The notes beneath the pieces are model-generated. The model was given only the letters and a program-made list of their open reading frames with translations, made no database searches and was not told the origin of the DNA. A program made the translations under genes and the position numbers. This document shows, piece after piece, positions 13,632 to 55,506 of a stretch of 64,000 bases of DNA. Within the stretch, counting starts at the first letter, position 1, and each line of letters begins with the position of its first letter. Source of the stretch: an uncultured Acidimicrobiales bacterium (GTDB lineage Bacteria; Actinomycetota; Acidimicrobiia; Acidimicrobiales; JAHEJN01); the NCBI GenBank assembly GCA_963787285.1, contig CAWBCM010000013.1, forward strand, positions 137,265-201,264, written 5' to 3'.

Positions 13632-13632
13632 G

Positions 13633-33839: not shown

Positions 33840-35059
33840 ATGGCCGAGTTCTCACCCGAGCTGAACGAAGATCAACTCCAGATCCAGAAGTGGGTCCATG
33901 AGTTCGCCGTGAACGAGGTCCGACCGGTGGCTCACGAGTGGGACGAGCGCGAGGAATTCCCGTACCCCGTGGTCGAGGAAGCGGCCAAGATCGGGCTCTA
34001 CGGCTGGGAGTTCATGGCCGAGGCCATGATGAACGACCCCACCGGGCTCACCCTGCCGGTGGCCATCGAGGAGCTGTTCTGGGGCGACGCCGGCATCGGC
34101 ATGGCCATCATGGGCTCGGGTCTGGCCGCCGCCGGTATCGCGGCATCGGGCACCAGCGAACAGGTCATGGAGTGGGTGCCGCAGTGCTACGGCGACGCCG
34201 ACAACGTCCAGCTCGGAGCCTTCGCCGCCTCCGAACCCGACGCCGGGTCCGATGTCGGTGGCTACCGCACCCGGCGCCAAGTACGACGAGGCCACCGACG
34301 AGTGGGTGCTCAACGGCACCAAGGCCTGGATCACCAACGGCGGTATCGCCGACATCCACGTCGTGGTCGGCGGTGGTCGACCCCGAGCTCGGCTCGAAGG
34401 GTCACGCCAGCTTCATCGTGCCGCCCGGACACGCCCGGGCCTCAGCATGGGCCAGAAGTACAAGAAGCACGGCATCCGGGCCAGCCACACCGCCGAGGTG
34501 GTGCTCGACGACGTCCGGATTCCCGGCCGCTGCCTGCTCGGCGGCAAGGAGAAGCTCGATGAGCGTCTGGCCCGGGTCCGTGAGGGCAAGCACGGCAACG
34601 CCCAGGCCGCCATGCAGACGTTCGAGGCCACCCGCCCCGCCGTCGGCGCCCAGGCGATCGGTGTGGCCCGTGCCGCCTACGAGTACTCGCTCGACTACGC
34701 CAAGGAACGGCACGCGTTCGGTCGGCCGATCATCAAGAACCAGGCGATCGCGTTCATGCTGGCCGACATGGCCACCGAGATCGAGGCCTCCCGACTGCTC
34801 ATCTGGCGGGCCGCCTGGCTCGGCAAGCAGAAGCAAGTTCGTGAACGCCGAGGGTTCGATGGCCAAGCTCAAGGCCGGCCGCACCGCCACCTGGGTCACC
34901 GAACGGGCCATCCAGATCCTGGGCGGCTACGGCTACACCCGTGAGTACCCGGTCGAGCGCTGGCACCGCGACGCCAAGATCCACGACATCTTCGAAGGCA
35001 CCGAGCAGATCCAGCAGCTGGTGATCAGCCGGGCCATCTCGGGGATGCGAATCGAGTAG
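33840..35059 (+). pseudogene. Acyl-CoA dehydrogenase, frame broken about 4 times; its last 26 codons are the island attachment repeat
   Basis: ACAD segments [23 protein letters not shown]..., [60 protein letters not shown] and [14 protein letters not shown]...[20 protein letters not shown] alternate between three plus-strand frames. The switches lie at about 34272, 34370, 34432 and 34834. Confidence 0.85.
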
Positions 35060-35060
35060 C
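34981..35060. repeat. attL-like 80-bp direct repeat (3' end of the acyl-CoA dehydrogenase gene)
   Basis: 79/80 identical to 55427-55506. The single difference (GCC vs GCG) is synonymous in the ACAD frame. Confidence 0.8.
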
Positions 35061-35150
35061 TTGACCTGCTGGTTTGTGGTCAGCGGTCACATCGGTGACC
35101 AAGGGTCACCAGCGGTCACCAGCTGTGGATAACTGATCCATCCCTACCCT

Positions 35151-35173
35151 CATCCCTACCCGGGGTAGGGATG
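35151..35173. repeat. 23-nt perfect palindrome overlapping the integrase start codon
   Basis: CATCCCTACCCGGGGTAGGGATG has 11-bp arms, and its terminal ATG is the int start. A half-site copy ATCCCTACCC lies just upstream (35143-35152). It belongs to the same stem family as 49606-49634 and 55299-55327. Confidence 0.6.
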
Positions 35174-36277
35174 AACGCGCTACGGTCGAGCCTCATGGCG
35201 ACCATCCGACAGCGGCGACCCGGGGTCTGGGAAGTGCGCGGCTACACGGGCAAGGACGTCGACGGGAAGTCGACCCAGGTGTCGCGGACCGTGTACGGCA
35301 CGAAGAAGGACGCCAAGGTGGTGGCCGCCGAGTTGACCGTGAAGCCGGCCCGCAACGCCGGCGGCCGCAAGCTGCGACAGCTGCTCGACGAGTGGATCGA
35401 CATCAAGACCCCCGGTTGGGCCGACCTCACGATTCGGGATCAGACGAGCCGGGCGAAGCAGGTCGCAGCCGACCCGATCGGCAACATGTCGGTCGCGTCG
35501 ATCGGCGTGTCCGACGTCGACCGTTGGGTCGCCCGTCTGCGAAAGGCCGGCGTGGGGGAGGGAGCGATCCGCAACCAGCACACCGTCTTGCGGTCAGCGC
35601 TACAGCAGGCGGTCCGGTGGGAGTGGATCGCCACGAACCCCGCCTCGAGCGCCCCGATCGAGAGCCCGAAGCGCCAGCAGCAGCGGACGCTCACCAAAGA
35701 CGAGGTGCGGGCCGTGATCGCCGCTGCCGCCGAGGTTCACGAGCTCGCCCCGCTGGCCTTCCGCCTCGGCGCCGAGATGGGTGCCCGTCGCAGCGAACTG
35801 GCTGCGCTCCGCTGGGACAAGTTCGTCGGCGACAAGGTGGTGGTCGATGGTCAGATCATCGTGTCGACCGATGCCGAGGGAGTTCGAGCGCCCAGGCTCA
35901 AGCCGACCAAGACCGGCAGCCGCCGAGTCGTGACCCTGAGCCCGGCGTTGCTGGCGATGGTCGAGGACGCTCGGGCGAAGTACGGCGACGTCACCACATG
36001 GCTGTTCACGCCAGATGCCGACCCACCCAACCCCGATCGCATCGGCTGGTGGTGGCGCCGCTCCCGAGAGCTGGCCGGCATTGATCCACGTTGGCGGCTG
36101 CACGACCTGCGGCACTGGTCGGCGACCGAGGCCATCGCCTCGGGACAGGACGTCCGCACGGTCGCCAACCGCCTCGGCCACGCCGATCCTGCGATGACGC
36201 TGAGGGTGTACGCACACGCTGTCGGCGCAGCAGACGAAGCGCTGGCCGGAATCCTCGGAGACGCACTCGGTGAATAG
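35171..36277 (+). CDS. int: Tyrosine-type site-specific recombinase (phage integrase family)
   Basis: 368 aa. It has an N-terminal SAM-like core-binding domain. The catalytic region carries R...HDLRHWSAT...LGHADPAMTLRVYAH (R, HxxR, H and Y residues). Confidence 0.9.
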   Translation: MNALRSSLMATIRQRRPGVWEVRGYTGKDVDGKSTQVSRTVYGTKKDAKVVAAELTVKPARNAGGRKLRQLLDEWIDIKTPGWADLTIRDQTSRAKQVAADPIGNMSVASIGVSDVDRWVARLRKAGVGEGAIRNQHTVLRSALQQAVRWEWIATNPASSAPIESPKRQQQRTLTKDEVRAVIAAAAEVHELAPLAFRLGAEMGARRSELAALRWDKFVGDKVVVDGQIIVSTDAEGVRAPRLKPTKTGSRRVVTLSPALLAMVEDARAKYGDVTTWLFTPDADPPNPDRIGWWWRRSRELAGIDPRWRLHDLRHWSATEAIASGQDVRTVANRLGHADPAMTLRVYAHAVGAADEALAGILGDALGE

Positions 36278-37481
36278 GTAGCGAGTATGCGGCGTGCGAC
36301 TTGGGCCGAAGCGCCACGCGTCGTAGCCGTTGTCGACCGGACTTATGAGCGCGCGTTTTGTGCGGGTCTGGCGCGGCGGACGGCGAGCAGAATGCCGGAT
36401 CAAGAGCGGGTATCTGGCGCCAGCGGCTTGTCGATATGCGTGGCCCTGACGGTCGCGGGAGGACCTGGCCGGTTCACTGCGGTAGCTTGCCTCGGTCGGG
36501 TTCGACGACGACGCTCTCAGGGGCCACCCCGAGCAACAACGATGCCAGGATCGGATCGACGCCACGAGGCGCGTAATCGCTGTTGCACGGCATCCGCTCT
36601 GATGACCAGCAGCGATGACCGGTCGGCCAGTGTCTAGATCGAGCGACGAGTCCCGAGTGAATGATCTGGGGCCTTCCCAGTCAGTTTGTGGCGGGCGGGC
36701 AACCAACCACTCGACGAAGAACGGGTTGACCGCAGCAGGGACCACCTCCTCATGCGGAAACTCGACGTCGAACCCGATGGCTTCGTAGCTCAAGGCAAAG
36801 CCCTCCGACAGTGATGCCTCTGTCGGAAAGGCCACGATGGTCCACAACGCCTGCGCTGAGATCATCACGATCGGCGCGGCTGGCGCCGGTGTCTGCAGCA
36901 CCGGTGTGAGACAGGCGTCGCGTTCCCAGACTGCGCTGACCTCGTACCACCTGACCTCGGGGATTGAGCGTTCGGCGAGGGCGTACGGGATGAAGCCGGG
37001 CTCAAGCGCCGTCGGATGAGTCACGAAATGGATGACCGAAGCGCCCCGGCCACCAGCCTCCCTCGGTGAATGGATGCTCGAGTTCTTCAGGCAGATGCCA
37101 CGCAGCGGGGACCGCTTTGAGCAGCCCGGGTTGCGCGGCATCGCTTCGGACGCGTGACCCTGCGGGGTGCTGACAACGACCCGTGGTCGTGAGCTGAGCC
37201 CCGGAATCTGAGCCAGATGGCTCACACAATGGGGCCCTCTCAGTCGTGTCAGCTGCTCTCGTTGGCGCTCGCTCGAGCCGGGCGCTGGCGTCGCAGGAGT
37301 CCCCCGTGTCACGGATCCCCTCTTGCTCCACGTCAGCCCGGGACCAGACAGCACTCGTCATGGGGACCTACGGCACTGCCCGGGCGCAGCGGTCCGTGTG
37401 AAGTTCGTAGTCGAGGGGCCATCGCCAGCCACATCATCCCGACGAAGCGACCAACCCCACCGCAAGAGACTGGAAGAAGCC

Positions 37482-38249
37482 ATGACCGGAGAATTCTTCA
37501 ACGACATTTCGCAGTACGAAGTCGAGAAGCAGGGCTACGTCTTCAAAGTGCCGTCCTTCTACTACGACAATCTTTCCATGAACGCTGTCTTCACAGCGTC
37601 CACGAACAAGGTGCGCAGCTACCTGCCACATCCGGACATGCACCCAGTGGAGATCTTCCCAGGCAGGTGCCTGTTGTCTTTCACCGCCTTCGAATACCGC
37701 AAGACCGATCTGGATCCATACAACGAGTTCAGCATCGGCGTGCTCATCGAATTCCAGAAGCGGTCCATCCCCTTCGCCGGTGCACTCAGAAAGATCCTTA
37801 AACGGGAATTCTCCCTCTACGTGTGGCACCTTCCGGTCACAACCGAGATCGCCCGGGTGGGAGGCGTGGAGTTCTTTGGCTATCCGAAGTTCATTGCCGA
37901 CATCGAGTTCACCCGCTCGGGAGACAAGCTGCGTTGTGACCTGTCCGAGAAGGGCTCCAGGATCCTGAGCATGGAAGGCAAGATGCTGCCCACCGAGCCC
38001 GGCAAGCGCCTGCGCTACATCACCTACTCGCTCAACGGCGGAGTCCCCCTGGTCACCAACATCTGCGTCAATCCCCTCCAGTTCGCCCAGAGCCGCGCCT
38101 CCGACGCTGTCAGTCTTGAGATCGACGGCGACCACCCCATCGCCAAGGAGCTTCAGGAAATCGACATCAGCGACACGCCCACTGCGTACCAGTACAGCCC
38201 GAACAACGAAGCCATTCTCTTCGCCGGCCGGAACCTGATGGACGCCTAG
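37482..38249 (+). CDS. Acetoacetate decarboxylase (ADC) family protein
   Basis: ATG at 37482. The PYNEFSIGVLIEF and ARVGGVEFFGYPKFIADIEF segments match the ADC-family core as I remember it. The gene looks lower in GC than its surroundings. Confidence 0.65.
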   Translation: MTGEFFNDISQYEVEKQGYVFKVPSFYYDNLSMNAVFTASTNKVRSYLPHPDMHPVEIFPGRCLLSFTAFEYRKTDLDPYNEFSIGVLIEFQKRSIPFAGALRKILKREFSLYVWHLPVTTEIARVGGVEFFGYPKFIADIEFTRSGDKLRCDLSEKGSRILSMEGKMLPTEPGKRLRYITYSLNGGVPLVTNICVNPLQFAQSRASDAVSLEIDGDHPIAKELQEIDISDTPTAYQYSPNNEAILFAGRNLMDA

Positions 38250-38871
38250 CTAGCGATCCCCCGGTCCGTGTGAATCGGAACCGGCAACCGGCAAGGGTAT
38301 CGACCGGCATCTTGGCTGTTGAGCGTGTGGGGCGAAGCGTTTCTCCCCGTTGTGTTCAACGAGGACTGGCGTTGCCCCGGGAGTGCGGACACGATTCGCT
38401 GAGCGATACGCGCCGCGCGACGACACCGCCGACTATCGCCAGACGCCTCAGTCTGCCGGCTCGGCGCTCGATATCGGCCAGCTCGTCTGAGGTGAATCGC
38501 GCATCGTGACGCCACCGAGGATGAAGTGTGACGTGACCGCTGAGCGCTTCGATCGAAGCGCTCGGCGCTGCGAGACAGCTTCGGCTGTTCTCTCCGAGCT
38601 GAAACAGATTGCTGAACGATATCGGTCGCCCTCAGCTCAGTTCACGACACGGAAGGACCGATCGGTTTGCCGGCTATGCGCTACTCGAGTCGGCGTGCGC
38701 CGTGAACATTCTGAGTGGTGCTGGTTGCTGGTTGCTGGTGATGTTCGTTCCGGTGTGGGTCAAGATGGCGTGGGTGGATGAGGAGGGCCATCGGTGCCTC
38801 ACGCGCTTGTGGCGGGCGCTGGGACGTTGGGCCCTGGAGCCTGGGCCCTTAGCGATGGCAGTCTCTTGTTG

Positions 38872-39390
38872 ATGGGACGGCCACAGACGAAAAGCGAGCT
38901 GGTTTGTGCGGCCAGTGAGGAATTCGACCGGCTCTGGGCGACGGCGGCGACGATTCGTGAAGAAGACGATGCGCGGCCGGGCGTTTGTGAGGTGTGGTCG
39001 TTGAAGGATGTGCTGGCTCATCTCGATGCGTGGCACGAGATGTTTCTGGAGTGGGAAGCCGCCGGGGCTCGAGGCGAGAAGCCAACGATGCCGGCGCCTG
39101 GTTTCTCGTGGGCGGAGACCCCGGCACTCAACGAGGTCATCTACCAGCGTCACAAGGCCGACGAGTGGGACGATGTCGTCAAGCATCTCCGTTACTCGCA
39201 CGCGAGGGTGTTGGAGCGGGTCGAGGCCTACAACGAGGACGACCTGTTCACCAAGAAGCTGTACGCCTGGACCGGGTCTACGTCGGTGGCGAGCTATGCG
39301 ATTTCGGCCACGTCGAGCCACTACAGCTGGGCCACGAAACTCATCAGGAAGGCGGCCAAGACCTTCGCCGCCTCCCGGATGGCGGGGTAG
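38872..39390 (+). CDS. ClbS/DfsB (DUF1706) family four-helix-bundle protein
   Basis: MGRPQTKSELV...FDRL..., VKDVLAHLDAWHEMFLEW, PAPGFSWAETPALNEVIY and a C-terminal ...SATSSHYSWATKLIRK align by eye along the whole length with E. coli ClbS. Confidence 0.75.
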   Translation: MGRPQTKSELVCAASEEFDRLWATAATIREEDDARPGVCEVWSLKDVLAHLDAWHEMFLEWEAAGARGEKPTMPAPGFSWAETPALNEVIYQRHKADEWDDVVKHLRYSHARVLERVEAYNEDDLFTKKLYAWTGSTSVASYAISATSSHYSWATKLIRKAAKTFAASRMAG

Positions 39391-39394
39391 ACCC

Positions 39395-40060
39395 GTGCGG
39401 GCTGCACCGTTCACCAGCTCCACGGATACTTCCGAGCAACCCATTGCCCGGTGGAACCGGGGCTGGGTGAAGGCGTGCGTGATCGGCGAGCTCATCGGTT
39501 TCCTTCCTCCAGCGGCAACCGGTGCCGCACTGGTCGTGCTGGGCGTTTCTGAGCTGGTGCTCGTTGCGGGGTTGGTGGCCGCTGGTGTGTTGGAGGGGCT
39601 CGTATTGGGGCGGGCGCAGGGCATCGTTCTTCGACAACTGATCCCAGGCGTCACCTGCTGGGCGGAAGCCACGGGAGTCGCTGCCGGGTTGGCGTGGCTG
39701 GCCGGGATGGGCGGCAGCTCGCTGGTGGGAGCGGTCGGGGCGAAGGGTCTCATCGTGGCGGTGCCGGGATGGATCATCGGCCTGCTCGCCATGGGCGTGC
39801 TCCAATCCTGGCGGCTGCGATCGGTCGTTCCCGACGCCAAACGGTGGATTCCGGCGACGACGCTCGCGTGGCTGATCGGCGTCACCATTCCTGTTGTTGC
39901 GCTGTCGGTTGTTCCGAATCAGTGGCCGCCTGCGGTTCACATCCTGGTCGCCATCCCCGCCGCGGTGGCGATGGGGGCCACGGTCGGTGCGATCACCGGC
40001 CGAACGCTCAACCGGTTCGTCGAACAGTCGCGATCTTTTTCACCGGGAGGCCAGCCGTGA
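39395..40060 (+). CDS. Hypothetical integral membrane protein (about 6 TM)
   Basis: The GTG at 39395 lies 5 nt after the ClbS-like stop. It has Gly/Ala/Leu-rich helices. Its stop overlaps the next start (GTGA at 40057-40060). The start choice is uncertain. Confidence 0.5.
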   Translation: MRAAPFTSSTDTSEQPIARWNRGWVKACVIGELIGFLPPAATGAALVVLGVSELVLVAGLVAAGVLEGLVLGRAQGIVLRQLIPGVTCWAEATGVAAGLAWLAGMGGSSLVGAVGAKGLIVAVPGWIIGLLAMGVLQSWRLRSVVPDAKRWIPATTLAWLIGVTIPVVALSVVPNQWPPAVHILVAIPAAVAMGATVGAITGRTLNRFVEQSRSFSPGGQP

Positions 40061-40665
40061 GTATCGATCTGAAGAAGACCTACGCCGACCACTACAGCGC
40101 CAGGGCGACTCCCACTGTGGTGGACGTGCCGTCGCGACCGTTCCTGATGATTGACGGGGCCGGTGATCCGAACACTTCAGTCGGGTACGTCGATGCGGTC
40201 GAAGCGTTGTATCCGATCGCCTACGGGCTGCGGGCCCAAGTCAAGGCGGCCACCGGTGACACCTATGTGGTGATGCCGCTCGAGGGTCTGTGGTGGGCCG
40301 AGGACATGAGCGAGTTCGATCCGACCGACAAGTCGAACTGGTTGTGGACGATGATGATCGGTCTGCCCGACGCGGTCACCGAAGCGATGGTTGACGAGAC
40401 GATCCCCGCCATCACTGCGAAGAAGAAGCTGCTCGCCGGCGAGCGGGTGCGGTTCGAGCACTTCGCCGAGGGCCACGCCGCCCAGGTCCTCCACATCGGC
40501 GCCTACGCCGAGGAGGCCCCAACCATCGCATCACTGCACGCCTTCATCGCCGAACAGGGCGGCGAGCTGACCGGCACCCACCATGAGATCTATCTCTCCG
40601 ATCCCCGCAAGGCCGCCACAGATAGGCTCCGCACGATCATTCGTCAGCCGTTCACCGATGCCTGA
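40057..40665 (+). CDS. GyrI-like small-molecule-binding domain protein
   Basis: FLMIDGAGDPNTS, VMPLEGLWWAEDM and HHEIYLSDPRK...LRTIIRQP are hallmark motifs of the stand-alone GyrI-like family. Confidence 0.75.
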   Translation: MSIDLKKTYADHYSARATPTVVDVPSRPFLMIDGAGDPNTSVGYVDAVEALYPIAYGLRAQVKAATGDTYVVMPLEGLWWAEDMSEFDPTDKSNWLWTMMIGLPDAVTEAMVDETIPAITAKKKLLAGERVRFEHFAEGHAAQVLHIGAYAEEAPTIASLHAFIAEQGGELTGTHHEIYLSDPRKAATDRLRTIIRQPFTDA

Positions 40666-41632
40666 CGAAACCGTCGAGGTCGTCTCGGAGCGAGTCCACG
40701 ACTGGCTGCTGGATGGCGATGCGGCGATTCGGTGGCAGACCAAACGCGATCTCCTCGACGCGCCGCCGAACGAGGTCGCAGCCGAACGAACGTTGGTCGC
40801 AACGACAGGATGGGGAGCGCAACTGCTCGAGCGTCAGGACCGGTCCGGCACTTGGGCCGACGGTCTCTACAGCCCGAAGTGGACCTCGACCACCTACACG
40901 CTGCTCCTGCTGCGACACTGCGGCCTGACGCCCGGGCATCCGGCTGCGTCGCGAGGAGTCGAGCTCATCTGGGACGGTGCGCGCTACTTCGACGGCGGCC
41001 TCACCCCGGCGAGGTCGATCGATGCCCCCGAAGCGTGCGTGACATCGATGTATCTGACATTGGCGAGCTATTTCGGATACGACGACGCTCGCGTCGACAC
41101 TGCCCTCGCCTGGCTTCTGGCGAACCAGTTGAGCGATGGCGGCTGGAACTGTCGAACCGTGCGCTTCGGCGACCGGCACAGCTCGTTCCACACGACCATC
41201 CTCGCCCTCGAGGCCCTCGCCGAATCGGCCCGGCACGAGCCCGAACGCGACGACATCGCACACGCCATGGCACGGGGGCATGAGTTCTTTCTCGACCATC
41301 GGCTCTACAAGTCACACCGCGATGGCTCCGTCGTGCATCCAGCGTTCGCCAAGCTGTCGTTCCCGCCACGGTGGCACTACGACGTGCTCCGCGGCCTCGA
41401 TCACTTCCAGGCCACCGACGCTCCTTGGGATTGTCGATGTCGGGACGCCGTGGACGTCGTCATCGAGCGCCGGCGCGCCGACGGGACCTGGCCTGTCCAG
41501 AACAAGCACGCTGGCAAGGTCTGGTTCGACATGGAAGAGACCGGTGGAGCGAGTCGGTGGAACACGCTCCGAGCGCTACGCGTCCAACGATGGGCCAGAA
41601 ACGCCGATCGGGTGGTCGAGCGAGCCCAATGA
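40658..41632 (+). CDS. Prenyltransferase/squalene-cyclase-like alpha/alpha-toroid repeat protein
   Basis: Repeated QW-like motifs (QDRSGTWAD, NQLSDGGWNC, RRADGTWP). It overlaps the GyrI-like gene by 8 nt and the downstream gene by 4 nt. Confidence 0.6.
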   Translation: MPDETVEVVSERVHDWLLDGDAAIRWQTKRDLLDAPPNEVAAERTLVATTGWGAQLLERQDRSGTWADGLYSPKWTSTTYTLLLLRHCGLTPGHPAASRGVELIWDGARYFDGGLTPARSIDAPEACVTSMYLTLASYFGYDDARVDTALAWLLANQLSDGGWNCRTVRFGDRHSSFHTTILALEALAESARHEPERDDIAHAMARGHEFFLDHRLYKSHRDGSVVHPAFAKLSFPPRWHYDVLRGLDHFQATDAPWDCRCRDAVDVVIERRRADGTWPVQNKHAGKVWFDMEETGGASRWNTLRALRVQRWARNADRVVERAQ

Positions 41633-42267
41633 GCGAAGCGCTGCCCTACATTGCGGCTCCTCGCAGCGGTTCGGGACCGCCAGTCATGATCATTCACTCA
41701 TGGTGGGGGCTCACGAGATCGTTCACCGACTACGCGGATCGGCTCGCCGACGCCGGATTCCTGGCTGGCTGCGCTGACCTCTTCGACGGCCGCACGGCGA
41801 CGACCCAACAAGAGGCAATGACCCTACGGCGCAGGAAACGGAACGAACCGATGTACCGGAGACTTCAACGAGGCATAGCGGAACTGACCACTCACGAAGC
41901 AGCGAGCATGGCCGAGTCCTCCGTTGTCGGCTTCTCCATGGGAGGTCACTGGGCGGTTTGGCTCGCACAGCATCCACCGCCGACGATCCGCGCCGCGGTG
42001 CTCTACTACTCCGCACGAGCCGGAGACCTCACAGGAGCCACCGCACCATTTCTGGCTCACTTCGCCGAGGCCGACGACTTCGTCACTTCATCTGCCCGCC
42101 ACAAAATGGAAGACGCCATCACGCAGCGCGGGCTGACCTACCGCAGCCATGAATACCCCGGGACCAACCACTGGTTCGGCGAAGTCGCTCACCCAGCCTA
42201 TGACCCGACCGCAGCTCAAGCCGCGTTCGATCGAACCGTGTCGTTCATCAACAGCAGCGCATGGTGA
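41629..42267 (+). CDS. Dienelactone hydrolase family alpha/beta hydrolase
   Basis: 212 aa. PVMIIHSWWGL and the nucleophile elbow GFSMGG. The C-terminus YPGTNHWF is typical of DLH-like proteins. Confidence 0.8.
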   Translation: MSEALPYIAAPRSGSGPPVMIIHSWWGLTRSFTDYADRLADAGFLAGCADLFDGRTATTQQEAMTLRRRKRNEPMYRRLQRGIAELTTHEAASMAESSVVGFSMGGHWAVWLAQHPPPTIRAAVLYYSARAGDLTGATAPFLAHFAEADDFVTSSARHKMEDAITQRGLTYRSHEYPGTNHWFGEVAHPAYDPTAAQAAFDRTVSFINSSAW

Positions 42268-42843
42268 TGGCCCTGCGTGAGCGCCCAATGGTCGAGCAGA
42301 TGGAACGACACGCACTGTGATCGCCCGGCACGAGAATGGAGGGTGCGCCAGGAATAGGGACGAAGCCCTGGCGAACGAGTCGCCACCGAAACCCAGCACG
42401 CCAACGGACCTATCTCGGCGACGACGTAGAAGGACTGGTTGCGCTGGAGGGTAGGACATCGCCATCCATCGGCTCGTCGGGTCGTCGACCCGAAGGTCTG
42501 TACCGCGATGGCGGGCTTGCCAAGTCTGGGCCAGGGGAGCAGCTGGGTTCCCGAGGCGTGTCGACAGCGGCGTCTGGCGAATCTGTTCGAGCGACGTCGA
42601 GTCTGTGTCATGGGCTGCGACGCGGTGAGCGCATGACCGACAGACGGGGGACTCTTGGCGTGACTATCGAGCGCCCGAGAGTCCCTTCGAGTGGATCGTC
42701 GACCGATCGAAGTGCCGGTTCTGCGCTAGCTGAGAGGCCTCCGCTCGGTGTTGATATGCGTGGCCGTGCGTGTCGACCTGCGGACCCCGTCGCTGTTCAA
42801 CCGATGTTGACGAGCTCGATGCCCGCTGGAAGAGTCTCTTGGT

Positions 42844-43419: not shown

Positions 43420-43458
43420 CGTTAGGAAGGACACTCCCAGCAGCCAATCGACCTGCGG

Positions 43459-43995: not shown

Positions 43996-44007
43996 GGGTA
44001 GGGCTCC

Positions 44008-44340: not shown

Positions 44341-44358
44341 GCCGAAACCCTATATATG

Positions 44359-46236: not shown

Positions 46237-46316
46237 CGCGCTCTCCTTGTTGAGATTCCGGTTCGATGCACATGGTGATCACTGGTGGTGAGGGACACGT
46301 GAGGTTCGGCTGAGGC

Positions 46317-49300
46317 TCACATCGTGCGGGTCGCTTGGGTGTCGATGTCATGGACCCGGGCGGTGCTGATCACTTGGGCTGCCAGGTCACGCACGGTCGC
46401 CACGTCCAGCAACGCGCCGTGCGTGGTCAGCCGCTCGAATTCCCGATGTCCGACCAGTGCGCTCGCCCGGGCTGAACGCTCCTTGCGGTGGTGTGCCCAG
46501 TCCGGTAGCCACAAGAATCCGTGGTGATCCCTGTGTTCCTCGCTCGCACCGTCCAGCACAACGGCGGAAACGGTGTCACCGGAGGCAGCAGCGAGCTCGG
46601 CGGTTGCGCCGAGCACCAGGGCGAGACTCCATGTGTCATTCCATCCGATCGAGATCTCGAGCGCCTCGCTCAGTGGCTCGGTCGCGTCCTTTGCCCGATT
46701 CATTGCCATGGAGCAGCGGCCGACGTCGCAGAGAGCTTGGGCGATGCTTTGGCCAAGGCCTCGTGCGGCGTCGAGTGCCCGGGTCGCGCATGCGTCAGCC
46801 TCGTCGATGTCGCCGAGGGCCAGAGCAATGCTCACCATGTCGCTGAGACCGTGGAGCGCCAGCGCGGGCCGGCCGAGTGCGGTCAGCGCGGCAGTTGACT
46901 CGCGGAGCAGTTGGCGCGCGCCCGAGAGGTCACCGCGTCGGTGGGCGAGCAAACCGCGACACTCGGTGGTCCAGGCCCGGATCTGAGGAAGATGGGTCCC
47001 GGTTGTGATCGCGTCGAGTTCGGGAAGCAGTCTGTCGGCCTCGGCGAACTCGCACAGTGTTACTGCCGCACGGACGTGGTCGATCAACAGCCTGGGGCGG
47101 GTGGGATCGTTCTTCGCGACGAGCTCCTCCAGCGCCCGAGCTGTCAACTGGAGAGCGCCTCGTTCGTCGCCGATCGCGTCGAGATAGGCCGATCTGGCCA
47201 CCACCGCGAGCGCCATGAGCTCGCGCGAGTTTGCTCTCTGCGCCTCGGCGGTCATCTGTTCGGCCAGTTCGAGCGCCCGCGGTGGATTTCCCGTGTAGGC
47301 ATGACGAATGGCCAGCGCTTGTTGAATCTCGGCTCGAGCCAGAGACGGAGCGGCGTCGCTCAGCTCGAGAATCGATGGGAACCATCTGAGAAACTCGTGG
47401 CCCTGGGCCGTGTTCAGCCAATGCAACCTCAGCGCTGCACCGAGGGCCAAGGCGAGGTCCGGAATGCGGGTTTCGACAGACCACTGGAGGGCCCGCTCGA
47501 AATTGGTGGCATCGGCGGCGAGCCGCTCCAATGTCGATCCGTGATCGGGTGAGTCGTATCCCGGCTCGGAAGGGCACAGGCTGGCGAAGTGCAGCGCATG
47601 GCGTCGACGGAGTGCATCGTCTTCGCCCGATGCGACGAGCAGCTCGCGAGCGTAGGCGCTCAATGAGACGAGCATTCCGTAGCGGCGCGGTCGCTCCCGG
47701 GTGACCGTGAGCAACGATGCGTCCAGGAGGTTGTCCATCAGATCTACGACGTCGGCTCGGCTGATCCCCTCACCCGAACAGACGCTTTCGGCCGCTTCCA
47801 TGTCGAATCCGCCGTCGAACACGGCCAGACGCCGGAACAACGTCTGGGCATCGACATCGAGAAGTTCGTAGCTCCACTCGATCGTCGCTCGAATCGTCGA
47901 GTGGCGCTCCGCGCCGCCGGCGACATTGGACGTGAGCACACCAAGTCGGTCGTCGAGACGGGCCAACAGCTCCACTGGTGACAGCAAGCGCAGCCGGGAT
48001 GCAGCCATTTCGATCGCGAGCGGCATCGCATCGAGGCGTCGACAAATCGATGCCACCACACGCGGTTCGACATCGTCGACCTCGAACCAAGGGTGAGTTT
48101 CGCGGGCCCGCTCGATGAACAATCGCACACAATCCGAATCCAGCAGTGCGGTCGGGTCGGCCGTTTCGATTTCGAGATCGAGACCAAGCGGTGGGATCGG
48201 CCAGACCTGTTCGCCCGGAACACGCAATGACCTTCGACTCGTGGCCAGAATCGTCAGTCCCGGGCCACTGGCCAGCAGACGGGAGACTATTTCGGCGACA
48301 GCCTCTGACAGGTGCTCGCAGTTGTCGACAATCAGCAGCGACCTGCACGACCCGAGCGCGGCTGCCACCTCTCCGAGCAGCGGGCGTGTCGGATGGGCCG
48401 GGACGTCGAACACTTCTGCAATCATTCGGATCACCCCGACGTCGTCGGCGGTGTCGGCCAACTCAACCGACCAGACACCATCGGGAAACTGATCGATCAG
48501 TCGGCGACCGACCTCCATGGCGAGGGATGTCTTGCCCATTCCCCCGAATCCGGTGACGGTGACCAACCGGTTCGTCGACAGATGAGCCATCACGCTCGCC
48601 AGTTCGGTCTCGCGGCCAACGAAGCTCGCAACCCGCTGGGGGAGATTGCTGGTCGGTCGCTCCGGGCCGGCTGGTACGACGACAGGCAACTCATGGCGAA
48701 GGATCTGCGTTTCGAGACGACGCAACGCATCGCCTGGTTCGATACCCAACTCCTCACCCAGCAGCGTTCGGGCCGAGCCGTACGCGCGTAGTGCCTCTGC
48801 CTGCTGATCACCGCGGTAAAGCGCCAACATCAGTTGGGCCCAGAACCGCTCGCGCAGAGGGAACTCAACCGTCAACTGCTGCAGCTCACCGACCAGGTCG
48901 CGGTGGCGACCGAGTTCGAGATCGGCATCGATGCGATCCTCGAGACAGACCAATCGGAGTTCCTCCAGCCGCGCGATCTCACCCTGCGCGAACTCCTCGT
49001 ACCGGAAATCCTCCAACGCCTCGCCGCGCCACAGCGCCAGTGCCTCAGCCAGGACGTTCCTCGCCCGAGCGTCCTGGCCCGACGCCAACATCTCCCGACC
49101 GTCGGACGCCAACCGCTCGAAAACCGTCGCATCGAGGTCTCCGGCCGACAGAGCAAGGCGGTAGCCCCGATCGGCTGTCTCGATCACCTCGGCCTGCCGC
49201 GCCCCGTCCACCGGCCGCAAAGATTTCCGGAGCTGAGAGACGTGGTACCGGAGTGTCTTGACTCCACCATCGGGTGGCTCTTCGCCCCAGAGCGCCTCGC

Positions 49301-49436
49301 TCAACTCCTCGACCGACACAACGCGGTTCGCGTTCACGATCAGCACACCAAGGATCAGCCGCGGTAGGCGGGCCGTGACGCGAACGTCGGCATCACCAAC
49401 GCGAGCAACCAGCGCCCCCAAGAGCCGAAACCTCAT
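46317..49436 (-). CDS. AfsR/SARP-family large regulator: OmpR-type winged helix + BTAD + NB-ARC/STAND P-loop ATPase + TPR-like C-terminus
   Basis: 1039 aa. MRFRLLG...YRL, BTAD (ALALWRGEALEDF...FWAQLMLALYRGDQQAEAL), P-loop GFGGMGKTS, and a long helical repeat tail. Confidence 0.85.
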   Translation of the reverse strand: MRFRLLGALVARVGDADVRVTARLPRLILGVLIVNANRVVSVEELSEALWGEEPPDGGVKTLRYHVSQLRKSLRPVDGARQAEVIETADRGYRLALSAGDLDATVFERLASDGREMLASGQDARARNVLAEALALWRGEALEDFRYEEFAQGEIARLEELRLVCLEDRIDADLELGRHRDLVGELQQLTVEFPLRERFWAQLMLALYRGDQQAEALRAYGSARTLLGEELGIEPGDALRRLETQILRHELPVVVPAGPERPTSNLPQRVASFVGRETELASVMAHLSTNRLVTVTGFGGMGKTSLAMEVGRRLIDQFPDGVWSVELADTADDVGVIRMIAEVFDVPAHPTRPLLGEVAAALGSCRSLLIVDNCEHLSEAVAEIVSRLLASGPGLTILATSRRSLRVPGEQVWPIPPLGLDLEIETADPTALLDSDCVRLFIERARETHPWFEVDDVEPRVVASICRRLDAMPLAIEMAASRLRLLSPVELLARLDDRLGVLTSNVAGGAERHSTIRATIEWSYELLDVDAQTLFRRLAVFDGGFDMEAAESVCSGEGISRADVVDLMDNLLDASLLTVTRERPRRYGMLVSLSAYARELLVASGEDDALRRRHALHFASLCPSEPGYDSPDHGSTLERLAADATNFERALQWSVETRIPDLALALGAALRLHWLNTAQGHEFLRWFPSILELSDAAPSLARAEIQQALAIRHAYTGNPPRALELAEQMTAEAQRANSRELMALAVVARSAYLDAIGDERGALQLTARALEELVAKNDPTRPRLLIDHVRAAVTLCEFAEADRLLPELDAITTGTHLPQIRAWTTECRGLLAHRRGDLSGARQLLRESTAALTALGRPALALHGLSDMVSIALALGDIDEADACATRALDAARGLGQSIAQALCDVGRCSMAMNRAKDATEPLSEALEISIGWNDTWSLALVLGATAELAAASGDTVSAVVLDGASEEHRDHHGFLWLPDWAHHRKERSARASALVGHREFERLTTHGALLDVATVRDLAAQVISTARVHDIDTQATRTM

Positions 49437-49605
49437 GGAGCATGCTAACCAAGGAGATCTTCGGGCTCTTCGACCGGACCCCTGACTTCAATGCCGGTTC
49501 GTCCGAAGCGAACGTCGAAGGCATGTGAGATTCGAGCACACCTTCGAGATGCTGCGCGCCGAGGGAGTGCGCTTCGTCCTCGCCGCCGCCAGTTGATGGC
49601 GGATC

Positions 49606-49760
49606 CATCCCTACTTTCTCGAAAAAGTAGGGATACCCAGCGGTAACCAGCGGACATCATCGGTAGACGTTTCACCAGCTCAGAGGACATCAACGGCCCT
49701 ACCGGCGCCCCGATCCCTAGTCCTTCACTACTTCTTGGTGGGCATCGGTCCTCGGTGACC
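49606..49760. repeat. Degenerate copy of the island right arm plus a core-like remnant
   Basis: 49606-49656 matches 55299-55349 at 46/51 positions, and all 5 differences fall inside the hairpin loop. A further 60-100 nt aligns at roughly three-quarters identity by eye. The stretch ends in CACTACTTCTTGGTGG, versus the core start CACGACATCTTCGAAGG. Confidence 0.5.
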
Positions 49761-49856
49761 GGCTATCGCGGGGCGACACAAGGCGATGGCGTGCCGCAGG
49801 TCGGCCCCGACGACCCGCCACAGCGCAGGTGCCGTCGGAGCCGGTCGACGAAATGA

Positions 49857-50662
49857 TCAACGCCCTGACGCGGCCTGCTCGTACTTGCGCACTGCGAGCG
49901 GAGCGAACACGGCGATGATGATCACCACCCAGCCGAGCGAGTAGAGCGCGGCGTGCTCGAGCGGCCATGCCGTGGGCTCCGGCGTTCCCTCCGGGATGTT
50001 CCCGAAGTGCTCACGGGCCGCCTGGGCCACGGCTGACACCGGGTTCCACTCGGCGAAGACGCGTAGCGGGGTTGGGAAGTCGTCGGTCGGTACGAAGGTG
50101 TTGGCGATGAAGGTCAGCGGGAAGATCACCAGCGACGAGGCGTTGTTGATCGCTTCCACGCTGCCGACGCTCAGGCCGACGTAGGCCATGATCCACGAGA
50201 ACGCATACGCGAACAGCAACACCAGTCCGAAGCCCAGCAGCGCGTTGCCGATCCCGTTGCTGATGCGCCACCCCACTGCGTAGCCTGCGGCAACCATCAC
50301 GATGGTCGACAGCACGTTGTAGATGACGTCGCTTGCTGTTCGGCCGAACACGACGGCCGAGCGCGACATGGGCAGCGACCGGAACCGGTCGATGATGCCT
50401 TTCTGCATGTCGTCGGCCAGACCGAGGCCGGTGAACGTGGACCCGAAGGTGAGCATCATGACGAAGGCTCCGCCGATGAGGAACTCCCGGTAGGAGCCGC
50501 CCTCGATGTCGATTGCGCTCCCGAAGACATAGGCGAACAGCAGCACGAAGACGAGCGGCATGATCACCACGGCCACGAGGAGCTCGGGCATGCGCGTGAT
50601 CTTGATGATGTTGCGACGGGCGACGGTTGCGCCGTCGGTGAGAGCAAGGTTGATGCGTTCCA

Positions 50663-50666
<4 letters not shown>
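49857..50666 (-). CDS. ABC-2 type transporter permease (DrrB-like)
   Basis: 269 aa with 6 TM segments and the ABC-2 family pattern. It is 4-nt coupled to the upstream ATPase gene. Confidence 0.85.
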
Positions 50667-51695
<1,029 letters not shown>

Positions 51696-51821
51696 GCGTC
51701 GACCGTGCATCACCCCGGTCGAGGCTCGGCGGTCGCCGGGTAGGAGGGCGGTCGACGTGGCGGCCGACGGGCTCGACCGAGGCTCAACCGGCCCACAACC
51801 GACCGGTTCGAGGATCTCGGC

Positions 51822-54800
51822 ATGGCCACGGTTATGGGAAGCTTGCTGCTCGAGGACGGTGAACGGAGAGGCTCGGCAGTGCAGATTCGTCTTCTCGGCG
51901 GCGTCGATGCCGTCACCGACGACGGGGACCCGATCGACATCGGCCCCGCCAAGTGCCAAGCCCTGCTCGCCGCGCTCGCGCTCTCGGCGGGCTCGGCGTT
52001 GCCGGTCTCGCGTCTCGTCGAGCTGGTCTGGGGCCAGGACCCTCCCCGGACGGCCGAGAAGACGCTGCAGTCCTACGTCACCCGGCTTCGCAAGGGCCTC
52101 GGGCCGGACTCGATCGAGCGGACCGGGGCCGCCTACCGCCTGGTCGTCGACCCCGCATCGGTCGACGTCACACGATTCCAGCGCCACTTGGCAGCCCGCG
52201 ACGTCGGCGCCGCCCTCCGGGAGTGGACGGGAACTCCACTTGCCGGGCTGGACGCGCCCGGGTTGACGGGAACCGTGGACGGGCTGTTGGAGCAGTGGTT
52301 CGGCGCAGTGGAGAGCGATCTCGCGCTGCTGGTCGATCGTGACCCCGCCGAGGCCGTGGCCGTCCTGACCGAGCTGACGGCGCAGCATCCGTTCCGCGAA
52401 GGCCTCTGGGCGTTGCTGATGACCGCCCTGTACCGCGGCGGACGCCAGGCCGATGCACTTGGCGCCTACCGGCGCGCCCGCGAGCACCTCATCGAGGAGC
52501 TGGGCGTTGAGCCCGGACCCCGCTTGCGTGAGCTCGAGGCGCTGATTCTGGGCCAAGATGACCGCCTCGACATCGCGCCGGCCTCGACCACCGCGCTCAT
52601 GCCACCGACCGGCACCGTGACCTTCGGCTTCAGCGACATCGAGGGGTCCTCCCGGCTGTGGGCCGCACACCGGCAGGACATGGCCAGCGCCGTTGCCCGC
52701 CACGACGACATCGTGCGTGCCATCGCCGCCGACCACGACGGCTACGTCTTCGCCACCGGTGGCGACTCGTTCGGCGTGGCATTCCACCGCGCCGGCGACG
52801 CCGCCGGATGGGCCGCCGACCTGCAACAGGCCATGGCCCGCGAGAGGTGGCCCGGCCACATCGAGCTGAGGGTCCGGATCGGCCTGCACACCGGTGAGGC
52901 CGAGGAGCGGGCCAACGACTACTTCGGGCCGGCGGTCAATGTGGCCGCACGGATCGCGGCCGCAGGGCACGGCGGCCAGACGCTGGTCTCGCCGGTGACG
53001 GCCGCGCTGGTCGACGGTCGCGGCCTACACGATCTCGGCACGTTCCGATTCGACGGCGTCGGTGCCGACCTGAACATCTTCCAGCTCGGCGACGGCGAGC
53101 ACCCTCCGCTGCGTACCGACGAGACCCGTCGCGGGAACCTTCCTCGGCGAACGGGCCGCCTCTTCGGGCGCGATCGTGAGCTCGACGTCGTCGCCCAGAC
53201 CATCGCCGCCAGCCCCATCGTCACCCTGGTCGGCCCCGGCGGCATCGGCAAGACCAGGCTGGCGTTGGCCGCGGCCCGGATCGCCGAGGTCGACCTCCAC
53301 GACGGGGCCTGGTTGGTCGAGCTGGCCGAGATCGCATCGTCGGCTGATGTCGCTCGGGCGCTCGCCGACCTGCTCGACGTGACCGAGAGCTCCGGCCACA
53401 CGCTCACCGAGTCGATCGTCGCCCACCTCGAGCGCCGCCAGACGCTGGTGCTGTTCGACAACTGCGAGCACGTCGTCGAGGGCGTCGCCAGTCTGGCACA
53501 GACGATGGCCAGCGGCTGCCCAGAGGTGAAGGTGCTGGCGACGTCTCGCGAGGGTCTCGGCGTGGCTGAGGAGCGACTCGTCGTCGTCGGCCCTCTCGAC
53601 GCTGCGGGGCCGGCCGTCGAGCTGTTCGACGAGCGGGCTCGTTCCGCCGACTCTTCCTTCGATCTCGATGCCGATCGCCACGAGGTGGAGGAGATCTGCC
53701 GGCGTCTCGACGGCGTCCCGCTGGCCATCGAGCTCGCCGCATCCAGGGTTCGGAGCCTGTCGCCGGCCGACTTGGTCGCGCGCCTGGATGATCGGTTGCG
53801 CCTTCTCACCGGAGGCCGTCGGAGGAGTGTCGAGCGCCATCGGACGCTGCGGGCGACGATCCAGTGGTCGTATGACCTGCTCACACCGCCCGAGCAAGTC
53901 CTGTTCCGGCGGCTGTCGAGCTTCGCGGGCTCGTTCGACCTCGCGGCGGCCGAAGCCGTCGCCGCCGACGACGAGCTGCCGGTCGAAGAGCTGAGCGGCC
54001 TTCTGGGCGACCTGGTCGGGCGGTCGATGGTTGTGGTCGAATCGGGCGCCTACGGCCGTCGGTTCCGTTTGCTGGAGACCATGCGGCAGTTCGCCGCCGA
54101 GCACCTCTCCGAGGCCGGCGCCAGCGATCGGACGGCAGCACGGCACGCCGGCTTCGTTCGCGACGAGGTCACGCGGCTCGGCGGGCTGCTCGTGAGTAAC
54201 GACGAGATCGAAGGCGCGGCGCGACTGGCCGAGCTGTGGCCGAACGTGCGCGCGGCTGTCCACTGGGCCTTGGCCGTCGAAGACCGTGACCTCACCACGG
54301 AGTTGCTGCGGCCGATCGCCCTCCAGATGTTCGTCCGCCGTGGCCTCGGCGAGATCGCCGACTGGACCGAGGGTCTGTTGGCGATCACGCCTCCCGACGA
54401 CGAGGAGACCATTGCGACCGGTCTCCTGTGGGCGGCGATGCACTACTCGATGACCCAGGACCGCGAGCACTTCCGTCAGCTCATCGAGGACAGCGGAGCC
54501 CCCGACCACCTTTTCGTTCGTTACGCCTACCTCGTCGGTGTCGAGGACGACGATTTCACGACGCTGGAGGTGGGCCCGCTCGTCGTCGCCGAGATGCGGC
54601 GGCTTGGTCAGGAGTCGTACGCCCGTGTGTTCGAGGTATTCACGGCGGCCGCGTTGATGACGTCCGGTCAGTTCGCCGAGGCCCGGGCCAGACACGAAGC
54701 CCTGGCTGAGCTGTTCCGGGCCGAGGGCCCGCCCTCATTCCTCAATTGGACCCTCTACCTGCTCGGTGCGTCCGCGGCCTTCCAAGGGGACCATGAGCTG

Positions 54801-55271
54801 GCCGATCGCTACTGGGAGGAGTTGACTGCCATCGAATTGCCCCCGAGGACCAACTCGCCCAACGAGACGCTGTCGGCCCGAGCGGCGTTTCGGCAGGGAC
54901 GCCGCCACGAGGCCTTCCGGATCCTTCGGAGCTACATCGACGAGCTGCTCGAGGTCGACAACATGGCCGGCACCGCAATCGTCGGCATCGAGTTCGTCAA
55001 CATGATGACCGCCGTCGGTCGCCTGATCGATGCCGGTGTGATTCTCGGGCACCTCGACGCAACCGGACTGCTCGGCGTCGAGGGCCCGGGATTCAAGGTG
55101 CTCGTCACCGACGCAGTCTTGGTCGTGGGCGCTGACCCGGACGCGGCAGCGGCCCGGGAGCGACGCAGCCGCCCGCCGGCTGGACGAGCGCTCCGCGCTG
55201 TCTTACATGGGGCGTGTCCTCGGCGAGCTTGTCGACGGTGCCGCTCGGCAATGACGAGGCCCGCCAAGTGA
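51822..55271 (+). CDS. SARP (wHTH + BTAD) - class III adenylate/guanylate cyclase domain - NB-ARC/STAND ATPase - TPR-like multidomain regulator
   Basis: 1149 aa. The more likely start is the GTG at 51879, with GGAGAG 9 nt upstream. Cyclase motifs are FGFSDIEGS, GGDSF, RIGLHTGE and GPAVNVAARI. The P-loop is GPGGIGKT. The tail is long and helical. Confidence 0.85.
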   Translation: MATVMGSLLLEDGERRGSAVQIRLLGGVDAVTDDGDPIDIGPAKCQALLAALALSAGSALPVSRLVELVWGQDPPRTAEKTLQSYVTRLRKGLGPDSIERTGAAYRLVVDPASVDVTRFQRHLAARDVGAALREWTGTPLAGLDAPGLTGTVDGLLEQWFGAVESDLALLVDRDPAEAVAVLTELTAQHPFREGLWALLMTALYRGGRQADALGAYRRAREHLIEELGVEPGPRLRELEALILGQDDRLDIAPASTTALMPPTGTVTFGFSDIEGSSRLWAAHRQDMASAVARHDDIVRAIAADHDGYVFATGGDSFGVAFHRAGDAAGWAADLQQAMARERWPGHIELRVRIGLHTGEAEERANDYFGPAVNVAARIAAAGHGGQTLVSPVTAALVDGRGLHDLGTFRFDGVGADLNIFQLGDGEHPPLRTDETRRGNLPRRTGRLFGRDRELDVVAQTIAASPIVTLVGPGGIGKTRLALAAARIAEVDLHDGAWLVELAEIASSADVARALADLLDVTESSGHTLTESIVAHLERRQTLVLFDNCEHVVEGVASLAQTMASGCPEVKVLATSREGLGVAEERLVVVGPLDAAGPAVELFDERARSADSSFDLDADRHEVEEICRRLDGVPLAIELAASRVRSLSPADLVARLDDRLRLLTGGRRRSVERHRTLRATIQWSYDLLTPPEQVLFRRLSSFAGSFDLAAAEAVAADDELPVEELSGLLGDLVGRSMVVVESGAYGRRFRLLETMRQFAAEHLSEAGASDRTAARHAGFVRDEVTRLGGLLVSNDEIEGAARLAELWPNVRAAVHWALAVEDRDLTTELLRPIALQMFVRRGLGEIADWTEGLLAITPPDDEETIATGLLWAAMHYSMTQDREHFRQLIEDSGAPDHLFVRYAYLVGVEDDDFTTLEVGPLVVAEMRRLGQESYARVFEVFTAAALMTSGQFAEARARHEALAELFRAEGPPSFLNWTLYLLGASAAFQGDHELADRYWEELTAIELPPRTNSPNETLSARAAFRQGRRHEAFRILRSYIDELLEVDNMAGTAIVGIEFVNMMTAVGRLIDAGVILGHLDATGLLGVEGPGFKVLVTDAVLVVGADPDAAAARERRSRPPAGRALRAVLHGACPRRACRRCRSAMTRPAK

Positions 55272-55298
55272 CATGCTCGGTCCTGCCGCGCACCCGTT

Positions 55299-55426
55299 CA
55301 TCCCTACTTTCTCCCGAGAGTAGGGATACCCAGCGGTAACCAGCGGACAGCACCGGTTAGCATTTCCGCAGGTCAGCAGGCATAAACGGCCACAGCCGGT
55401 CACCAGTGGACAACCCCAAATCAGAC
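55299..55426. repeat. Island right arm (hairpin + AGCGGTNAC repeats) abutting attR
   Basis: CATCCCTACTTTCTCCCGAGAGTAGGGATACCCAGCGGTAACCAGCGGACA..., then GGTCACCAGTGGACA. It is homologous to 49606-49720. Confidence 0.55.
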
Positions 55427-55506
55427 CCACGACATCTTCGAAGGCACCGAGCAGATCCAGCAGCTGGTGATCAGCCGGGCGATCTCGGGGATGCGAATCG
55501 AGTAGC
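55427..55506. repeat. attR-like 80-bp direct repeat
   Basis: 79/80 identical to 34981-35060. It encodes [25 protein letters not shown] plus a stop but has no ACAD sequence upstream. Confidence 0.8.

Follow-up and report, generated by a model that had tools for sequence, protein, structure and literature searches.

A hotspot for small integrative islands at the 3' end of an acyl-CoA dehydrogenase gene in Acidimicrobiales, and its composite occupant in one genome

The last codons of a gene for a 404-amino-acid acyl-CoA dehydrogenase (ACAD) appear to be the chromosomal attachment site (attB) of a family of small integrative islands in Acidimicrobiales. We analysed a stretch of 64,000 nt that carries this gene, on contig CAWBCM010000013.1 of an uncultured Acidimicrobiales bacterium; we call this whole stretch the window, and coordinates given without a locus name are positions within it. 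A preliminary description of the window, made from its sequence alone, had recognised an integrase island of about 20.5 kb inserted into the end of the ACAD gene. Our interpretation, to which we assign a probability of roughly 0.78, is that the window is a hotspot of small integrative islands that use the ACAD 3' end as attB, and that the 20.5-kb interval is a composite of one element, which we call E1, native chromosomal DNA, and a second arm and core of an attachment (att) site (Table 1).

The interval is bounded by a direct repeat of coding sequence. Its core copies, at 34981-35060 and 55427-55506, are identical at 79 of 80 positions, as the preliminary description had stated, and in a repeat search the match grows to 84 nt (82/84 identical, 98%, with mismatches at 34980 and 35035). 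Each copy translates to the C-terminal 25 residues of ACAD followed by a TAG stop codon, and the C/G difference at 35035, the only one within the 80 bp, exchanges GCC for GCG and is synonymous in the ACAD frame. The weaker similarity that had been noticed for about 35 nt beyond the stop is also real: its local alignment score is 29, compared with 12.0 +/- 2.2 for 1000 shuffles, none of which reached 29. ARAGORN found no tRNA or tmRNA gene in the whole window, so the target really is the protein gene.

Next to the left copy of the repeat is a gene for a tyrosine integrase (hereafter int). Its product is a member of the PF00589 (Phage_integrase) family (70.4 bits against a cutoff of 27.1, residues 173-350), and its match to the central domain PF22022 is borderline (26.4 against a cutoff of 27). 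The first ATG of the open reading frame (ORF) is at 35171, which is 111 bp past the left repeat, the distance first reported; the start conserved by relatives is at 35195. The catalytic residues R...K...HxxR...H/W...Y can be recognised in ARRSEL, KPTK, HDLRHW, LGH and RVYAH (the first Arg and the Lys by eye), and box II, the HxxR...GH...Y block, aligns to IntI4 (2a3v) and to a XerC-like recombinase (4a8e). The excisionase-type helix-turn-helix (HTH) protein that was said to be encoded inside the interval is there, and belongs to the HTH_17 family (PF12728). Its domain is confined to the last 50 residues, so the actual gene probably covers less than the ORF (about 44654-44860). Homologous HTH_17 genes (xis) adjoin int in the related loci L087, L088, L097, L099 and L102. 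Over the upstream end of the HTH_17 ORF in the window there is an imperfect inverted repeat (44977-45113, with 48-nt arms that are 75% complementary and 41 nt apart), which is probably just upstream of the real, shorter gene and may be a candidate excision-control site.

Both ends of the interval carry a set of short motifs outside the coding repeat. The P' arm, between the left core and int, contains a post-stop palindrome (GGTCACATCGGTGACC), direct GGTCACCAGCGG / CTGTGGATAAC repeats, and a ATCCCTAC...GTAGGGAT hairpin just upstream of int, and this layout is kept in the attL sites of L081, L012, L016, L031, L055, L082 and L088. The same hairpin and the GGTAACCAGCGGACA / GGTCACCAGTGGACAAC sites stand before the right core, and eight of the nine ATCCCTA/TAGGGAT heptamers in the window are at the island ends. 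The arm motifs are putative arm-type binding sites for Int or Xis.

To place the ACAD gene among relatives, we used the best 80 species-level genome loci found with the reconstructed ACAD protein. The protein aligns to them over residues 1-404 at 76-90% identity, and almost all of them are metagenome-assembled genomes of Acidimicrobiales or Acidimicrobiia (for example, relatives of Ilumatobacter and Microthrix), so the target is a strongly conserved gene of that order. Whether the pairing of integrase and target recurs was a question raised by the preliminary description, and we found that it does so widely. A protein search with the integrase yielded 1,357 homologues at E <= 1e-20, and in every context that we read (homologues of 48-98% identity) int is directly downstream of the same 404-residue ACAD. 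The contigs found through int homologues of 53-98% identity, all with ACAD immediately upstream, comprise L081, L082-L087, L088-L091, L097-L098, L099 and L102. Among the 80 ACAD loci, int or fragments of it occur 75-150 bp past the ACAD stop in L009, L012, L031, L055, L065, L078 and L080 (the identity is 95% in L012, 79% in L031 and L055, 55% in L065 and 50% in L078), and a P' arm follows ACAD in L016 and L036.

Second copies of the ACAD tail bound islands of 2.3-9.3 kb, with differing cargo, at at least six other loci: L028 (2.7 kb), L059 (3.1 kb), L067 (2.3 kb), L078 (3.9 kb), L081 (7.9 kb) and L102 (9.3 kb, with an 80-nt repeat at 98.75% identity). Cargo across the elements includes GNAT, glyoxalase and SnoaL proteins, an extracytoplasmic function (ECF) sigma factor, MacB-type ABC systems, IS110 and a HepT/MNT toxin pair. 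In the att sites that we aligned (the window, L081, L028, L067 and L102), the ACAD-derived segment starts at an identical position. This fits the earlier suggestion that the element's own site, attP, derives from a homologous ACAD locus, because the ACAD-derived part begins at the same place in several independent elements. Most sites are unoccupied: 71 of the 80 loci have at least 300 nt of readable sequence downstream of ACAD, and about 57 of these 71 contain no int, second core or arm motif.

On this evidence we consider that the proposed integrase-mediated insertion into the ACAD 3' end, with duplication of the tail, is supported. The repeat could instead be left over from a segmental duplication, or from gene conversion, that involved the ACAD tail, with the integrase as a bystander, and the want of direct evidence for excision or circular forms (0 matches in exact-match metagenome scans) would suit that explanation. 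It is strongly disfavoured, however, by the presence of the integrase clade directly downstream of ACAD in every context examined, by the conservation of the repeat boundary across elements and of the arm motifs on both sides, by the variation of cargo between elements, and by the emptiness of the site in most relatives.

The survey of related loci also gave two observations on the family of elements. Some seemingly empty loci (L003, L005, L011, L019 and L043) yet have element-like sequence after the stop codon (CTCTGAGCTGGGG..., GTAAACAAAGGGATC...), and L003 has a xis homologue after ACAD (11424-11579) without int; these have the look of scars or leftovers from previous occupants. In L099 (10001-11747), the C-terminus of the integrase is fused to a nucleotidyltransferase domain of MNT type, and a HepT-like gene comes next. 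This fused form is a subclade of proteins that are about 53-55% identical and 470-480 residues long, in which a toxin-antitoxin antidote appears to have been joined to the recombinase.

The preliminary description treated the whole interval between the repeats as a single element of 20.5 kb, which our comparisons do not support. E1 spans 35061-49698. Its left end is complete, and homology to the close relative L081 is continuous through an inner right arm (P arm) and stops at 49698; in L081, the third arm site and a core come next. At 17581-18407 of L081, this E1 arm and core are followed directly by a second P' arm, with ATCCCTAG repeats, and by a different integrase that is closest to the one in L078. 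L081 therefore holds a tandem array of two elements. In the window, the core that is expected after the inner arm is missing. The 132-nt junction that takes its place includes a copy of the post-stop motif (alignment score 27, reached by 2 of 300 shuffles), and apart from this motif we found no significant similarity to a decayed 80-bp core at 49699-49860.

The two copies of E1 differ in the DNA between int and xis, which amounts to 8.2 kb of cargo in the window and 1.4 kb (a TetR gene and one other gene) in L081. The cargo block of the window has a G+C content of 60-65%, compared with about 70% in the flanks. The E1 backbone (44557-49698, containing xis, a SnoaL-like gene and the SARP regulator) has 95.3% nucleotide identity to L081, whereas the upstream host flank is only 84.5% identical over 6.2 kb and the region of ACAD plus int is 92.5% identical. 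That the element is closer than the hosts suggests transfer after the hosts diverged, though differing selective constraint could contribute. About 2.9 kb just upstream of ACAD (30756-33672) is missing from L081, which makes a second indel beside the hotspot; it holds an ORF of 778 codons (31354-33690, minus strand) with no Pfam match and no homologue in the 80 related loci.

To the right of the core-less junction are genes for an ABC-2 permease, an ABC ATPase and a large SARP-type regulator, which we call the ABC/SARP cluster. Its nucleotide identity is 83.8% to L100 and 78.8% to L101, and in L100 and L101/L102 it is outside the att cores. The single contig that comprises L101/L102 reads ACAD, int, xis, a 9.3-kb island, the attR core, a WYL regulator, a 162-residue gene, HrpB, and then the permease, ATPase and SARP genes. 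In L100, the permease is 97% identical and the cluster is found past both an arm-plus-core site and a second core fragment, and in L072 the permease comes directly after ACAD. The permease is conserved at 70-100% in very many contigs, and the G+C content of the cluster matches the host flanks, not the E1 cargo. Because the cluster is outside the att sites in L100, L101/L102 and L072, it is the native right flank of the hotspot and not cargo of an element.

These comparisons make it unlikely that the whole of 35061-55426 is one integrative element of 20.4 kb, in which the ABC/SARP cluster would be ordinary cargo and the inner arm an internal duplication. The near-identity of the two cores and the complete look of both arms would be natural in such an element, and ABC transporters are indeed cargo in other elements of the family (for example, in L082-L087). 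However, the same backbone ends in L081 at the inner arm, followed by a core; the cluster is conserved chromosomal DNA with host-like G+C content beyond the att sites of relatives; and a piece of the permease gene is also found outside attR, as described below. We also dropped a simple tandem of E1 and a second element, E2, with the ABC/SARP cluster as E2 cargo, because L100, L101/L102 and L072 show it to be native flank.

A second P arm begins only 17 nt past the end of the cluster homology and leads into the right core. It shares 86% identity with the inner arm and 84% with the arm in L081. Together with the arm repeats at 35104-35172, the window thus has three arm copies and only two cores, as expected of a composite island. 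Just right of attR is a conserved hypothetical gene, gene X (P0121), which has homologues at 40-57% identity, one of them (P0125) in ordinary chromosomal contexts. It is followed by a duplicated 3' fragment of the permease gene, broken at both ends and with unrelated flanks, and by a glyoxalase-family gene. At 57151-57181 there is an isolated copy of the post-stop motif that may be a relic of an older att site. A pattern search found only two copies of this motif in the window and none in 100 shuffles, a control that is circular because the two copies had themselves supplied the pattern. Att sites in tandem or as remnants were seen independently in L081, L100 and L067. In L100, a WYL-domain regulator and a 174-residue gene are enclosed by two copies of the ACAD tail (11859-11920 and 13616-13822), of which one has a full arm. 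This segment is an integrase-less remnant, resembling a cis-mobilizable element (CIME), between the main island and the permease cluster.

Table 1. Features of the ACAD hotspot in the window, with the strand and the basis of each assignment.
Feature	Position	Strand	Basis or remark
Target ACAD gene, conserved, 404 aa	33843-35059	+	Frame broken by four small insertions as sequenced
attL core, left repeat copy	34977-35060	+	Last 25 ACAD codons, stop, one more base
P' arm	35061-35194	+	Motifs conserved in relatives
Tyrosine integrase of E1 (int)	35195-36277	+	PF00589, PF22022; catalytic residues
E1 variable cargo block	36311-44557		Absent from the 92-95% identical E1 of L081; Pfam
Cargo: ADC-like	37323-38249		Pfam
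Cargo: DUF1706/DinB	38794-39390		Pfam
Cargo: GyrI-like	39694-40665		Pfam
Cargo: dienelactone hydrolase	41371-42267		Pfam
Cargo: GNAT	42844-43419		Pfam
Cargo: AHSA1/SRPBCC	43459-43995	-	Pfam
Cargo: ArsR	44008-44340	-	Pfam
Excisionase-type HTH_17 gene (xis)	44654-45064	-	PF12728, E = 2.5e-10
E1 backbone regulator, SARP/BTAD + NB-ARC/AAA + TPR, 1039 aa	46317-49436	-	Pfam
Inner right arm (P arm) of E1	49606-49698	+	ATCCCTAC hairpin plus GGTAACCAGCGGACA site; no ACAD-derived core after it
Core-less junction, 132 nt	49699-49830		One ATCCCTAG motif (49713); post-stop motif copy (49735-49760)
Chromosomal cluster between the repeats	49831-55281		Pfam; synteny in relatives
ABC-2 permease	49857-50666	-	Pfam
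ABC ATPase	about 50663-51695	-	Pfam; +1 insertion near 51125
SARP-adenylate cyclase-NB-ARC-TPR regulator	51822-55271	+	Pfam
Second P arm	55299-55426	+	Hairpin, arm site, third arm site GGTCACCAGTGGACAAC at 55398-55414
attR core, right repeat copy	55423-55506	+	Repeat search, alignment
Post-stop segment, weakly similar to 35061-35095	55507-55545	+	Local alignment
Gene X, conserved hypothetical, 199 aa, GTG start	55620-56216	+	P0121; just right of attR
Duplicate 3' fragment of the permease gene, 293 bp	56251-56543	-	98% identical, 5 mismatches; outside the repeats
Isolated post-stop/P'-proximal motif copy	57151-57181	+	26/31 identical to 35073-35103

The condition of the ACAD gene itself bears on the quality of the assembly. 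The left copy of the repeat does adjoin the body of the gene, as the preliminary description held, but that body is not one open frame. Its coding signal shifts through frames 0, 1, 2, 1 and 2, and comparison with five orthologues places insertions at about 34273 (+1), 34369 (+1), 34434 (+2) and 34828 (+1). An old pseudogene is unlikely, because most substitutions that separate it from four orthologues are synonymous, and the proportion is the one seen when intact orthologues are compared; for example, after removal of the insertions there are 111 synonymous and 52 non-synonymous codon differences from L012, compared with 119 and 43 for a pair of intact orthologues. The ABC ATPase gene adjoining the island also bears an insertion, so that, of the genes beside the island, the two most conserved are those with frame-breaking insertions. 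The insertions are probably consensus errors in genes that are conserved enough to attract reads from related populations; a real, very recent inactivation is the less likely alternative. We rejected poor assembly with frameshifts throughout the window, because genes such as those for methylmalonyl-CoA mutase and MeaB match their profiles separately and over the full length, and because three genes in or near the island, each 3.1-3.4 kb long, are intact.

More local trouble could have arisen if strains with different occupants of the hotspot had been threaded together, so that the second arm and core and the permease fragment would be assembly artefacts of a mixed population. The source is apparently a metagenome contig, the frame-breaking insertions cluster in ACAD and the ABC ATPase, which are the kind of gene where reads from related populations could mix, and the other long genes of the window are intact, all of which is compatible with such a history. 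We nevertheless think it slightly less probable even than a single element, because the copies differ from each other (identity is 86% between the arms and 98% for the permease fragment) and have different flanks, unlike a collapsed or duplicated repeat, and because tandem or remnant att sites occur independently at other loci.

Several points weigh against our interpretation. The apparent origin of the contig in a metagenome assembly, and the small insertions that interrupt ACAD and the ABC ATPase, leave the local assembly quality uncertain. E1 lacks its own right core, so E1 alone may be immobilised. The 86% identity of the arm copies and the 98% identity of the permease fragment mean that a single simple duplication does not explain both, and faster drift of non-coding sequence accounts only partly for the gap between 14% and 2% divergence. 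We did not find an excised circle, an attP junction or a restored attB, and no match was obtained when metagenomes were scanned with the exact sequences of the B' junction and of the arm/core junction. The crossover point within the core could not be located, since identity between the window and L081 is about 90-97% across ACAD and int with no step. Finally, the empty site that the preliminary description proposed to seek exists in many relatives, as described above, but we recovered none that belongs to the same species and shares the right flank.

The anatomy, the recurrence, the empty sites and the composite structure are observations; the catalysis, the control of direction, any present activity and the order of the rearrangements that we outline next are inferred. 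The integrase, bound to the ACAD-tail core and to the arm sites, would recombine attP with the chromosomal ACAD tail. The attP site would consist of some 80 bp from the 3' coding end of ACAD, its stop codon and roughly 35 bp downstream, with arm-type repeats on both flanks. Because an attP of this kind carries the last 25 codons, the stop and the sequence after it, the ACAD C-terminus would be complete whichever side of the tail the exchange occurs on, and insertion would leave a complete ACAD frame and the tail doubled as attL and attR. The HTH_17 protein would bias the reaction toward excision. The elements carry only int, xis, a regulator, and variable cargo for small-molecule or stress functions; without genes for transfer, replication or virions, their movement between cells must depend on functions encoded elsewhere. 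As to the history of the window, the most likely course is that the att site underwent accretion or duplication and that at least two deletions came afterwards, which would have left two intact cores that bracket E1 plus about 5.5 kb of host DNA. Because the core at 55427-55506 is the only intact partner for attL, excision would release E1 together with the ABC/SARP cluster. If the system is still active, recombination between the cores would thus excise a circle of about 20.4 kb with captured chromosomal genes, a case of gene capture.

In Pfam scans that covered the plausible ORFs from 35.1 to 57.1 kb, we found no genes for conjugation (type IV secretion system or FtsK/SpoIIIE-type Tra) or replication, and in the island ORFs no relaxase domain and no virion, packaging or lysis genes. 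Likewise, the annotations of related elements include no relaxase, conjugation module, replication genes or virion genes. By these scans, the island does not qualify as one of the integrative and conjugative elements (ICEs) or of their actinomycete class (AICEs). An origin as a prophage or phage satellite was rejected in view of the absence of structural genes and of viral relatives: no relatives of the integrase were found in IMG/VR, and its identity to characterised phage and plasmid integrases does not exceed about 30%. What was found instead is the set of features of a 3'-end island, namely a repeat that duplicates the tail of the target gene, a recurrent pairing of integrase and target, and unoccupied sites, with the caveat that the body of the gene is frame-broken in the window.

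Other mobile elements use the 3' ends of protein-coding genes, such as ICESt1 and ICESt3 in fda, SGI1 in trmE, and the prophages e14 and 21 in icd. The island in the window resembles such elements in that its integrase gene adjoins one att site, it encodes an excisionase-type HTH protein, its cargo is variable, and occupancy of the site varies between relatives. It differs in its target, an acyl-CoA dehydrogenase gene in Acidimicrobiia, in the distance of its integrase from characterised phage and plasmid integrases, and in that no relaxase, conjugation, replication or virion genes were detected. The targeting of 3' ends of protein genes by tyrosine-integrase islands, ICEs and integrative mobilizable elements (IMEs) has been stated as a general rule, and it is less common than tRNA targeting yet well documented (PMC5704250). 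The preliminary description was therefore right about the order of frequency but overstated the rarity of a protein-gene attB. Our literature search found no report of ACAD or fadE as attB, or of such islands in Acidimicrobiia. What we describe is a new target and a new integrase clade within a well-known kind of system, and an ordinary though recurrent kind of mobile island.

The composite structure has precedents as well. The decay of elements to CIMEs without an integrase, accretion in tandem and the transfer of composites have been described, with accretion, CIMEs and gene capture all represented among ICESt1-related elements of Streptococcus thermophilus (PMC5704250). The ssrA islands of Dehalococcoides may be similar in this respect (PMC3146451). 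The ACAD hotspot is similar in having several att-type sites in direct orientation, with some of the internal ones decayed, and in its arrangements: tandem elements in L081, an integrase-less segment between two cores in L100, and non-element DNA between intact cores in the window. The difference is that the window encloses chromosomal DNA, namely a conserved cluster whose native place is beside the site, and mobilisation of the composite is a prediction from its structure. The tycheposons of Prochlorococcus (bioRxiv 10.1101/2020.12.28.424599) offer another comparison. Like the ACAD islands, they are small integrative elements with cargo in abundant aquatic bacteria that are uncultured or oligotrophic, they accumulate at a small number of conserved sites, and they provide flexible genes while having no obvious apparatus for transfer. 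Most tycheposons, however, use tRNA genes as sites, and they have characteristic replication or packaging modules, whereas no such modules were found in this island.

The last 80 bp of the gene for the 404-residue ACAD constitute an easily recognised integration hotspot in Acidimicrobiales, an abundant, largely uncultured and poorly studied order with little-described mobile elements. In annotation, flexible islands can be delimited by means of the ACAD tail, this clade of integrases and the ATCCCTAC / GGTCACCAGCGG motifs of the arms, and the window illustrates how native genes can become bracketed by att sites. No new principle is involved, because other bacteria already provide established cases of 3'-end targeting, tandem accretion, integrase-less remnants and gene capture. 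A broader view, which we offer tentatively and consider rather less probable than its contrary, is that the elements are undescribed, order-wide shuttles of int, xis and cargo that move between species without transfer genes of their own, with ACAD as the main hotspot of flexible genes and neighbouring genes mobilised along with them. If it were true, abundant aquatic and wastewater Acidimicrobiia would have a hotspot at which neighbour genes enclosed between functional att sites are mobilised. Elsewhere in the window, and unrelated to the island, the gene at 57816-61124 encodes an unusual 1102-residue fusion, in which PPDK_N and PEP-utilising mobile domains are joined to a class-II fructose-bisphosphate aldolase domain at the C-terminus.

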